From a virus, in IMG/VR virus record IMGVR_UViG_3300037189_023236: a stretch of DNA of 64,000 nucleotides; one strand, 5' to 3'. The number at the start of each line of letters is the position of its first letter. Position 1 is the stretch's first letter. Below are positions 52,272 through 60,864 of this stretch, piece after piece. The notes under the pieces are model-generated. The model made no database searches. It was not told where the DNA came from and was given only the letters and a program-made list of their open reading frames with translations. A program made the position numbers and the translations under genes.

Positions 52272-52505
52272 TCAGTCCGGCAACAGCGTAAATCCGCGCG
52301 CCTCAAGCTTTTCGCGGATTTCGTTGATTGTCGTGTGGCCGCAATTCTTCAGCTTTTTGAACGCGCTGGCGGTGCAGTTTGACAGCTCGCCGATCGTTGC
52401 GCACCCGAGAGCCTCTGCAGCCTTTTTAGCCCGCGTGCCAAGATTGAGCTCAGCAATACTGGCGTTAAAGTCCGAATCGCTCGTGTTCTCTGGCGTCAAG
52501 TTCAT
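52272..52505 (-). CDS. stand-alone RNA polymerase alpha C-terminal-domain-like protein
   Basis: SIAELNLGTRAKKA...TIGEL...KLKNCGHTTINEIREKL...G.L parallels alpha-CTD (I..LELSVR..N.L...IGDL...NLG.KSL.EI...L). Confidence 0.8.
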   Translation of the reverse strand: MNLTPENTSDSDFNASIAELNLGTRAKKAAEALGCATIGELSNCTASAFKKLKNCGHTTINEIREKLEARGFTLLPD

Positions 52506-56231: not shown

Positions 56232-57417
56232 GAATATGCTAGATCACACGCAAGACATCAGCGGCCGCGAAACCCATCGGTTATTGTCTTTGTATACGCC
56301 GCCGGATTTTGTTAAATCTGCGTCCGCTGACCGGCTCAACGGCGATCCCGAAAAGCTTGCTAGGCATCTTTACGCCGATCCGAGCAAGAAACTTTATCCA
56401 TGCCATACAGCTCCTGCTACTTGGATGTCTGCATTATGGTTTACCGAAAAACGAGCAGAATTTGACGCCGCGATGGCCTCGACCATCGAAACGCGCATTA
56501 AAACGGCTGCAAACTATTTTGGCATCGCGGGGGCCGTAGAGCAATTAATGGAGAAAGTGGCCCGCGACAACAGCAACGAATTGGCCAAGCTACCCGACAC
56601 GGCATTTGCCATCGTTTGGAAAGACGAAGCCGGCAACACTGAACGCCACTGGCCCATGCGCAATGCGACCGAGGTTAAGTTTGCCTGCGCGCATTTCCGC
56701 AAGTATCGCGACGAGTTCATTTTTGCCGATCGGCATAAAATCGCTAATAAAATTCTCGACAAGGCGCTCGAGTTTGGGGCCGACACATCGGCGGCGGAGG
56801 GCATTTTGGAGTCGACGGCCGGGCGTGGCTTGTGCGCCACAAAAGTCGCGGCCGAGCTTCTCAGGGACCGCGCTGCACGTACGGCTAGGACGCACGCAGC
56901 GCTTAGCGAAGAAATGACCAAGCTTGCCGAGTTAGTAGAAGCAAACCCGGCAGAAACGCAGCACGAAGAGTGCCGGCTAAAGCTGGCCGCCGTAATTGAT
57001 CAATTTGACCGCGAGACGAAGCTCTGCCGGTTGTACGACGATAACGGCCTCTCTCGCGCTGAAGAAGTCCTTTTCGCTATCACCGAGAAGGTTGCCCGCG
57101 ATTTTATGAGTGAAAACGTGGAAACAACCACCGGTAATGTGTACGCCCTGGAAGATATCGAAAAACTGGCTGTTGAAGATATTCGCAGCTGGATGGGCGA
57201 CGACTTTGCGGACGCTGTCTCAACCGGCGGCGTCTACACGGATCGCGACAAGCTGGCGGCAATTGTTCCCACGCTTGATCGTGGAATGGCCGCCACTTTC
57301 GACCGGCTTATGCAAGAAAAGCGCGCCTATCCGATTGTGACAAAGGCGGCCGCGGCGTCGCTAATGCCCGAAGACAGGCTTTATGATTTAGCCGCAGAGT
57401 TTAAGTTTGACGGCTGA
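56230..57417 (+). CDS. DUF6582-like repeat protein, probably virion/late
   Basis: Two similar units (LYPCHT...SALWF...RIKTAANYFGI; HWPMRN...ACAHF...KILDKALEFG); GGAG RBS. Confidence 0.55.
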   Translation: MNMLDHTQDISGRETHRLLSLYTPPDFVKSASADRLNGDPEKLARHLYADPSKKLYPCHTAPATWMSALWFTEKRAEFDAAMASTIETRIKTAANYFGIAGAVEQLMEKVARDNSNELAKLPDTAFAIVWKDEAGNTERHWPMRNATEVKFACAHFRKYRDEFIFADRHKIANKILDKALEFGADTSAAEGILESTAGRGLCATKVAAELLRDRAARTARTHAALSEEMTKLAELVEANPAETQHEECRLKLAAVIDQFDRETKLCRLYDDNGLSRAEEVLFAITEKVARDFMSENVETTTGNVYALEDIEKLAVEDIRSWMGDDFADAVSTGGVYTDRDKLAAIVPTLDRGMAATFDRLMQEKRAYPIVTKAAAASLMPEDRLYDLAAEFKFDG

Positions 57418-57614
57418 GTCGCGGCAATTCGCTGTCTTTGTGCGCGCAAGTCAAACTTGATTTTCGGAATTAGTTCCGAGCGCAATACCGTTACGTTTGG
57501 CGGCGCGACAAAACCAAGGCGCACAGAGCCGTTGTCGCGGATCTCAATGACTTTAACCTGAATATCCTCGCCAATTTCGATTGTCTCGCCCTCTCGACGC
57601 GTTAAAACAAGCAC
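57381..57614 (-). CDS. csrA: carbon storage regulator CsrA/RsmA
   Basis: MLVLTRREGETIEIGEDI.VKV.....VRLG..AP..V.V.R.EL. Confidence 0.9.
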   Translation of the reverse strand: MLVLTRREGETIEIGEDIQVKVIEIRDNGSVRLGFVAPPNVTVLRSELIPKIKFDLRAQRQRIAATQPSNLNSAAKS

Positions 57615-59493: not shown

Positions 59494-59973
59494 CTATTGT
59501 TCGCTGTTAAATTTTTTGATGTGCGCCAGCCTTGCCGCATAGAACTGCGCGATCATCGGCGCCACGCCCTCAAAATTTTTCTGGATATCCGGCAGCACGA
59601 CCTCTCGAAACACGCGAATAATCGTAGCCTCTAGCCGGCTTAGCGCTTCTTTCGTGTAGCGGGCGGACGCTGCCTGCATAGCCGCTTCGCGCACTTCTGG
59701 AGACGTGTCAAGCAAAATCTGCAGATACGTCGGGCAGATAAACCGCGCCTCGTGACCAAGTGCGCGCATTGTTTTTAGCGTTTCTTGCGGCGCGCTAAAA
59801 ATTGGCTTTCCAGGATCCGGGTCTTTTTTGTCCAAGCTCTTCGGATCTGGGTGCCGAATATTTTTCAGCAGCCAGCCGTATTCTGCGATATCAGAATTCG
59901 GATCTGACATCGTGTATGCCGCTTTTGGCCGCGTCGGTGCATTCGGGTCGTGGAGTGTGTGTCTCTTTGCCAT
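59494..59973 (-). CDS. hypothetical protein
   Basis: 159 aa. Confidence 0.55.
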   Translation of the reverse strand: MAKRHTLHDPNAPTRPKAAYTMSDPNSDIAEYGWLLKNIRHPDPKSLDKKDPDPGKPIFSAPQETLKTMRALGHEARFICPTYLQILLDTSPEVREAAMQAASARYTKEALSRLEATIIRVFREVVLPDIQKNFEGVAPMIAQFYAARLAHIKKFNSEQ

Positions 59974-60021
59974 GCTCGCTAATAGCTAAGGAAAATCGTG
60001 ATAGGTAAGACATAACGCTGG

Positions 60022-60072
60022 TGTACCAAGACTTTGCAACCTGTAAAAACAATGTTGCAAAGTCTTGGTACA
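60022..60072. repeat. 19-bp perfect inverted repeat
   Basis: TGTACCAAGACTTTGCAAC-N13-GTTGCAAAGTCTTGGTACA. Confidence 0.9.
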
Positions 60073-60089
60073 AACCAGACTTGACTGCA

Positions 60090-60492
60090 TGAACTTCAGA
60101 TGGCGATACCCGCGGAGAAAGTGCTACCACTTTCCTTGACCCTGTGATCCGCTTATTAGGCTACGCATACCATTCGGCGCAACTTGTTAACGCTGATCAG
60201 GCGTTAACTTATTGGGCTAGTGATATGCCGCAGGATTTTCACCTGCACCCCCCGCTCTCCTAAGTCGTGGTTAGTCGAGGATAGACCATTGGCGTCTGTG
60301 TACCCTAGCACTAAGCGTGGCCGGGCGCGTGGTCGCTACTCCACACACAGACTCAAGTGCCTTAGCACCTACCCTCACAGAATTCAACCACCAAGGTTGC
60401 TCCCGACCCCTTGCGGAATCGGCCTCAGTGTGCGTGCACCTAGAGATAGGGTCATCTCACACGCTTCTGCGGATACCGCCATCTGAAGTTCA
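60090..60492 (-). ncRNA. large structured non-coding RNA of unassigned family
   Basis: 16-bp perfect terminal inverted repeat extending to a ~28-bp helix with G-U pairs on the minus strand; internal GNRA, T-loop-like and other hairpins; no credible ORF. Confidence 0.7.
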
Positions 60493-60561
60493 ACTCAAAA
60501 GTCGCTGACGACAATCGATAGGAACAACTAATATGCCAGCATTTTGGCAAAAATTTAGCAG

Positions 60562-60864
60562 TCAGAAAGTGACCTGGCTAATCTGCCCAGTCGCCGACGC
60601 CTGTACGATTGTGATCGACTTTGTGTCGAGTAGTCGTTTGAGTTCTTCTTTTTTTTCTGCGCTCAGTGACACTAGGCAGTTTTTAATGTTGGCCAGCGCG
60701 GTACGTTGCGCATCAGCACGCCGGCGGGCGCACGCGCCGCAGCCTGTTTTCGCTGGAGCTATTGCTGTTTTCTGATTGAACAGGCACGGAATCGCCGCCG
60801 TAAATTTTTCGTCGTTTACCATGGCTGCGATCGTACTGTCTTCAATTACAACTATTTCACGCAT
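60562..60864 (-). CDS. hypothetical protein (CxxC)
   Basis: GCGAC motif; last gene of the structural run. Confidence 0.65.
   Translation of the reverse strand: MREIVVIEDSTIAAMVNDEKFTAAIPCLFNQKTAIAPAKTGCGACARRRADAQRTALANIKNCLVSLSAEKKEELKRLLDTKSITIVQASATGQISQVTF

Follow-up and report, generated by a model that had tools for sequence, protein, structure and literature searches.

The viral DNA analysed here is a 64,000 nt stretch of IMG/VR record IMGVR_UViG_3300037189_023236 (hereafter the window), in which a folded RNA of no described family was found on the minus strand at 60090-60492. The phage that carries it is uncultured, comes from fresh water and has a genome of about 200 kb. The structure very probably exists at the level of RNA and is both new and accessory to the phage. 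The fuller reading, that this is a self-contained structured noncoding RNA (ncRNA) of a new family which acts in trans, joins observed to inferred parts and was given a probability of about 0.5. The assignment to RNA and to the minus strand follows from covariation among homologues, from an excess of G-U pairs on the sense strand and from reading frames that are broken. A structured ncRNA of no recognisable family had been proposed at this place in a first-pass annotation made from the letters of the window; the empty Rfam search and the covariation in three lineages described below bear this out.

The genes around the locus all lie on the minus strand. The two that flank the RNA, encoding proteins of 100 and 159 amino acids (aa), are 588 nt apart, with no sense-strand open reading frame (ORF) between them, and all six reading frames are interrupted, at different places in each lineage. 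The ends of the RNA are formed by an inverted repeat with arms of 27 nt (60090-60116 and 60466-60492; 89% complementary), the outer 16 bp of which are perfect. This perfect repeat, and its continuation with G-U pairs, had been noticed in the first-pass annotation and corresponds to a closing helix (P1) of 24 uninterrupted base pairs on the minus strand, two of them G-U; the outward extension of the helix to about 60078/60503, also suggested there, is not conserved in the homologues. The minimum free energy of a 441 nt stretch folded as the minus strand was -189.4 kcal/mol, compared with -150.5 +/- 6.4 kcal/mol in dinucleotide shuffles (z = -6.1). The opposite strand gave z = -6.7, yet its energy was weaker (-164.7 kcal/mol); this is what assignment of the G-U pairs to the minus strand would predict.

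Relatives were found by means of the 159-aa protein encoded downstream, which gave 51 proteins on contigs of up to 199 kb. These contigs were then retrieved; individual loci are designated by L numbers. A homologous insert is present in the same slot in three independent lineages: that of the window, L092/L093 and L094. The copies in the window lineage (L106-L113) are identical to the window RNA or differ from it by one base, and L114 contains a partial copy, a 3' fragment. The RNA is 57-59% identical between the window and the other two lineages and 76% identical between L092/L093 and L094. The flanking genes are 67-79% identical across the RNA-bearing lineages. For the window, the identity of 57-59% to L092 and L094 stands beside values of 68-79% for its flanking protein genes, while the L092-L094 pair has no such excess divergence of the RNA (76%, versus 67-78% for the genes). 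This comparison is suggestive of accelerated change, or of the replacement of an allele, in the window lineage.

The consensus structure calculated with RNAalifold from the three full-length sequences contains 104 pairs, 33 of which are changed on both sides. In 500 shuffled controls, neither the observed number of double changes nor the covariation score was reached (0/500). When the pairing partners were slid by 1-3 columns, 35-45% of the cells were paired, with 1-7 double changes; in the count made with these controls, the consensus itself had 97.1% of its cells paired. In the comparison of strands, 300 of 312 cells were paired on the sense strand and 267 of 312 on the antisense strand; G-U pairs make up 36 of the former. 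Invariant positions amount to about a quarter of the bases and are located in loops, in bulges and in the inner half of P1.

The terminal inverted repeats, together with the presence of the element in some relatives and its absence from others, are also what would be seen for an element acting as DNA, such as a miniature inverted-repeat transposable element, a site of recombination or packaging, or a gene in decay. The first of these had been named as the alternative in the first-pass annotation. An origin of this kind is most improbable. The RNA is present as a single copy in the window and in each related locus retrieved, its terminal arms change in sequence with their pairing kept, and no target-site duplication is visible at its ends. 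The 36 G-U cells are moreover specific to one strand, and the nested internal helices covary. As for a decayed gene, no likeness to the proteins that some relatives encode in the same slot was detected by tblastn; the RNA is thus not a remnant of those protein genes.

The coordinates of the RNA, its helices and the flanking features are collected in Table 1. P1 opens onto P2, P3, P4 and P14 in a five-way junction. All 21 of its aligned pairs are paired in every sequence, and the nine that are compensatory lie in the outer half; the inner half (UGGCGG.A.C.GC and its partner) does not vary, nor does one G-U pair. The length of P1 is held at 22-24 bp although the outer half covaries freely. The P2 hairpin holds a 23 nt block, AGAUGACCCUAUCUCUAGGUGCA (60435-60457), without a single difference among the lineages. 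P3/P3a has an invariant GAGCAA bulge (60397-60402) and an apical loop that varies (GCAA, UUCG or CAACGU), and four pairs of P4 are changed on both sides. The covarying stalk P4-P5-P5a connects the first junction to a second multi-helix junction (P6-P13), and the inner domain thus reached contains the invariant motifs GUAGCG and GUGCUAGGG. The window RNA has no P12 hairpin; its P11 is extended instead.

Table 1. Positions of the folded RNA, its parts and the flanking features in the window.
Feature	Coordinates	Strand	Remarks
Whole folded RNA	60090..60492	minus	About 403 nt, first to last base of closing helix P1; homologues in L092/L093, L094 and L114
P1, 5' strand	60469..60492	minus	Closing helix; 24 bp in the window, 22 bp in L092 and L094
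P1, 3' strand	60090..60113	minus	Inverted-repeat match and covariation
P2/P2a hairpin	60432..60464	minus	Two compensatory pairs in P2
P3/P3a hairpin	60389..60430	minus	P3 covaries; P3a forms in each sequence
P4, 5' strand	60375..60387	minus	Pairs over a long range with 60136-60147; 11-12 bp, one base bulged
P4, 3' strand	60136..60147	minus	Includes AGGGUCA; sequence not conserved
Stalk P5/P5a and inner multi-helix domain	60162..60367	minus	P5, P5a, P6, P10 and P13 covary
P5/P5a	60359-60367 with 60150-60161	minus	Covarying
P6	60345-60352 with 60294-60301	minus	Covarying
P10 hairpin	60229-60247	minus	Covarying
P11-P13 arm	60165-60228	minus	P13 covaries; P11 predicted independently in all three sequences
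P14 hairpin	60116..60135	minus	Two compensatory pairs; loop GUAG in the window, GUGA or GCGA in relatives
Upstream flanking gene	60562..60864	minus	100 aa, without known domain
Promoter-like box GCTAAATTTTTGCCAAAA..GGCATATTA	60529..60559	minus	Conserved ahead of the slot
Small leader hairpin after the box	60501-60512	minus	
Long hairpin directly behind the RNA	60014..60080	minus	19 perfect bp + 4
Tail and leader CTTAcCTATCACGATTTTCCTTAGCTATT before the ATG of the next gene	59974..60011	minus	Conserved
Downstream flanking gene	59494..59973	minus	159 aa, weakly resembles HEAT repeats; found in relatives whether or not they carry the RNA

The internal hairpins of the first-pass annotation were all recovered within one base of the positions given there. 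The hairpin at 60185-60207 and the helix 60344-60352/60294-60302 are conserved through compensatory changes. The same applies to the stems of the supposed GNRA hairpin (60403-60422) and of the arm likened to a T-loop (60230-60246), whose loops are not kept: the former is the varying P3a loop described above, and the latter reads UGAAAAU, UUAACGC or CUAACGA. A long-range pseudoknot proposed between UGACCCU (60448-60454) and AGGGUCA (60137-60143) fails, since AGGGUCA belongs to the 3' strand of the covarying P4 and is not conserved in the relatives.

A self-complementary word is found in the P13 loop of every lineage (UGAUCA in the window and GUAC in the others). These words would permit loop-loop dimerization, although with two independent lineages this is no more than suggestive. 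A possible alternative pairing exists between the invariant P2 loop sequence CCCUA and the invariant GUGCUAGGG, neither side of which varies. The heptamer UAGGUGC occurs twice on the minus strand of the window RNA, in the invariant P2 block (60435-60441) and just 5' of P5 (60365-60371); the second copy is absent from L092 and L094.

Searches of known families and databases were negative. With Rfam 15 at the gathering score, the whole window gave nothing but two tRNAs elsewhere; in particular, no match was obtained to GOLLD, ROOL, HEARO/omega RNA, OLE, raiA or Polynucleobacter-1, nor to RNase P, group I/II introns, 6S, SRP or riboswitches. At E <= 10 over 59900-60650 only chance matches were obtained, none of them to a large structured RNA family; they comprise microRNA models on the downstream hairpin, which are due to chance, and two short small-RNA models inside the RNA. 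ARAGORN found no transfer-messenger RNA (tmRNA) or tRNA at the locus and reported only tRNA-Gln and tRNA-Thr elsewhere. The lack of tmRNA, RNase P and group I/II hallmarks, which had been noted from the sequence, agrees with these results. Comparison of both the slot and the RNA with GenBank phages by blastn brought up no similar DNA, even at E = 10. Motif scans that covered three parts of the RNA and, between them, IMG/VR, JGI metagenomes and GTDB genomes gave no homologue. This absence is weak evidence, because the close relatives stem from newer assemblies (JGI, ENA, NCBI and Logan) and are not in these collections. Exact patterns made from the invariant 22-mer and 20-mer gave no further homologue either, and a scan with a 15-mer from the P1 arm gave 90 matches, all of them single-arm chance matches. 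The sole multi-motif match, L105 (a Deinococcales metagenome-assembled genome), lies in a short intergenic spacer and was rejected as chance. A retron msr-msd was also considered on account of the terminal helix and was rejected: no reverse transcriptase domain is present in the ten neighbouring ORFs, and the RNA is multi-junction rather than an msr with one msd hairpin.

The RNA is longer than 300 nt, has no ORF, contains many covarying helices and multi-way junctions and is borne by a phage, which are the characters of the large ornate phage ncRNAs. It belongs to no described family and fits this kind, and it is unrelated to GOLLD or ROOL. GOLLD (RF01998) and ROOL, which occur in phages and prophages, are likewise phage-borne, ORF-free, without known function, several hundred nucleotides long and built of many helices and multi-way junctions. 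They differ in that they show neither covariance-model nor sequence likeness to the window RNA, in that the latter is closed by a terminal helix of 22-24 bp, and in that it is so far found in a handful of uncultured freshwater phage contigs. GOLLD and ROOL are also well larger. The window RNA may share with them a fold that acts by itself; the hint of a multimer is confined to the P13 loop words. RNAs of the GOLLD/ROOL type form RNA-only multimers as seen by cryo-EM, according to a preprint (bioRxiv 10.1101/2024.12.08.627333).

It appears improbable that the RNA represents a new ribozyme class, whether through self-cleavage, ligation or another catalytic activity. The two nested multi-helix junctions, the invariant unpaired blocks and the conserved G-U pair in P1 would suit a catalyst, and RNAs of comparable size and complexity have often proved to be catalytic. 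No known ribozyme model matches, however, and nothing indicates a cleavage site. There is also no exon context, as the flanks are noncoding and relatives show a clean, empty site.

The accessory character of the RNA was established by comparing the slot between the two flanking genes (59974-60561) in L091-L137 and further relatives. Both flanks of the slot are conserved in more than 30 related loci. Four states were observed, each bounded by the promoter-like box and the long hairpin. The RNA is present in the three closest lineages. The slot is empty, with a spacer of about 45 nt, in L095/96, L099-102, L115, L117, L120, L132, L134 and L161/162; the last two loci were reached via the upstream 100-aa gene. 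A family of proteins of 74-148 aa with a conserved C-terminal motif (QRDAY.AC / AMQCDHYLLCL) is encoded in L097, L103, L118, L124, L125, L128-131 and L135, and an unrelated ORF of 125 aa is found in L091. The slot resembles a payload-exchange site. In L163 (2874-4250), the gene homologous to the 100-aa gene precedes three small genes and a GC-rich gap of about 490 nt, which replace the arrangement of box, slot and 159-aa gene; only a 51-aa ORF was called in the gap, and no likeness to the RNA was detected there by nhmmer. No copy of the RNA was found by BLAST in the whole records of ten related IMG/VR phages, and it is absent from the complete 205 kb relative G005 and from the 120 kb G002 (nhmmer --max). 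Judged from these comparisons of sequence, the RNA is an accessory payload of the slot.

The surroundings of the payload are more constant. The box is found upstream of the slot in the relatives for which upstream DNA was recovered, regardless of the content of the slot. The base of the long hairpin (GUACC...GGUAC) and its UUUGCAA arms are kept in 17 relatives, and its length varies. At a fixed distance behind the hairpin follows CTTAnCTATC...TTTTCCTTAGCTATT. No U-tract follows the hairpin at 60014-60080, which is therefore not an ordinary intrinsic terminator.

This arrangement could also be that of a leader acting in cis on the operon whose first gene encodes the 159-aa protein, for example as a sensor of the riboswitch type, as a processive antiterminator or as an element that affects the stability of its own transcript alone. 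The only conserved promoter-like box lies on one side of the RNA and the next gene on the other, no U-tract terminator separates them, and leaders that are large and ornate are known (T-box, cobalamin, put and EAR RNAs). We nevertheless consider a role in cis unlikely. Most relatives keep the gene, the box, the hairpin and the leader either without the RNA or with a protein gene in its place. Because the 159-aa gene retains these elements where the RNA is missing, the RNA was taken to be an accessory payload and not a part of the regulation of that gene. A perfect P1 of 22-24 bp would furthermore be too stable for a switch helix, and no alternative pairing with the downstream hairpin is conserved.

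The slot was also compared with the promoter-early stem-loop (PeSL) cassettes that reportedly occur in T4-type phages. As in these, a conserved promoter-like box and a stem-loop bound differences that concern the whole payload, which may be an RNA, a small gene or nothing; box and hairpin are conserved around all four states of the slot, and their roles as promoter and terminator are putative. The window differs from PeSL in the order of the elements (box, payload, hairpin), in having RNA as the payload and in containing a single copy of the box.

We propose that the RNA is transcribed from the minus strand, starting at the promoter-like box. P1, with its two perfect turns, and the hairpin of 19-23 bp behind it would then be cut or protected in the manner of RNase III substrates, as the stalks of rRNA are, and the outcome would be a stable, clamped RNA of about 380 nt. 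By virtue of its fold this RNA would act in trans, as a scaffold or decoy that binds proteins or as an RNA-only assembly. It would be neither an antisense RNA nor a regulator of the next gene. In the stalks processed by RNase III in rRNA operons and in T7 and lambda transcripts, the 5' and 3' flanks of a structured RNA similarly pair with each other over about two helical turns, and there too a second long hairpin precedes the next cistron. Cleavage of the window RNA is extrapolated from these cases, and processing of the RNase III type combined with action in trans as outlined is a tentative proposal.

Several points weigh against the reading of a self-contained RNA that acts in trans. The box occurs once in the 64 kb and does not match the sigma-70 consensus, so that its role as a promoter is an assumption; a sigma-54 reading, judged by eye, does not fit. 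As the hairpin behind the RNA has no U-tract, the RNA may belong to a longer mRNA leader. Both the ends of the RNA and any processing are inferred, and the analysis yielded no partner protein, no target and no catalytic motif. The covariation comes from only three full-length sequences, and the inner domain varies by lineage, with P7-P9 and P12 differing and uncertain.

Two phage-encoded systems were examined as possible partners. The first-pass annotation had suggested a partnership with the RAMP/Nop proteins, according to which the window RNA would be a guide or partner of the Vipr-like RAMP or the IS110/Nop-like proteins of the phage. Nothing beyond their presence in the same genome speaks for this, and it is very improbable: the genes lie about 43 kb away (16198-17631), Pfam finds no domain in either protein, and the RNA is accessory, being missing from the complete 205 kb relative. 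The Vipr guide RNA (vrRNA) is an array of alternating GGY and NN segments, as described in a preprint (bioRxiv 10.64898/2026.04.26.720920). The window RNA has no run of at least three GGYNN units; the four three-unit runs of the window all lie elsewhere, and none is longer.

The second candidate is CsrA, which is encoded on the same strand 2.5 kb downstream (57381-57614) and for which the RNA could serve as a CsrB-like sponge. We think this scarcely credible. The five or six GGA triplets per 381-403 nt are at the level of chance; those that are conserved are found chiefly in stems or bulges and not in hairpin loops. The architecture is one of long-range helices and not a string of GGA hairpins, and CsrA is present in L102 and L097/L103, which are without the RNA. 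The csrA gene (minus strand; Pfam E = 1e-19) is missing from L095/L096 and L099, and its distribution is independent of that of the RNA. A stand-alone RNA polymerase alpha C-terminal domain protein of 77 aa is also encoded in the window (52272-52505, minus strand; Pfam E = 1e-11).

Large, highly structured RNAs without known function are rare, and several earlier ones are ribozymes or RNA-only assemblies. The present RNA is compact (about 400 nt) and has a fold that is well defined by covariation, and since the slot is empty or protein-bearing in close relatives, natural comparisons with and without the RNA are available. It is conceivable, if doubtful, that the RNA is the founding member of a new class of large ornate RNAs carried by jumbo phages from fresh water, in which an RNA-only payload in a swappable expression cassette would have a fold-based role not yet seen for phage RNAs (RNA-only assembly, ribozyme, or decoy for a host defence or RNA-binding protein). 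The slot indicates that phage accessory cassettes can have RNA, and not protein, as their payload. If a role in host takeover or counter-defence were true, an RNA-based tool would join a repertoire that is known almost wholly from proteins.
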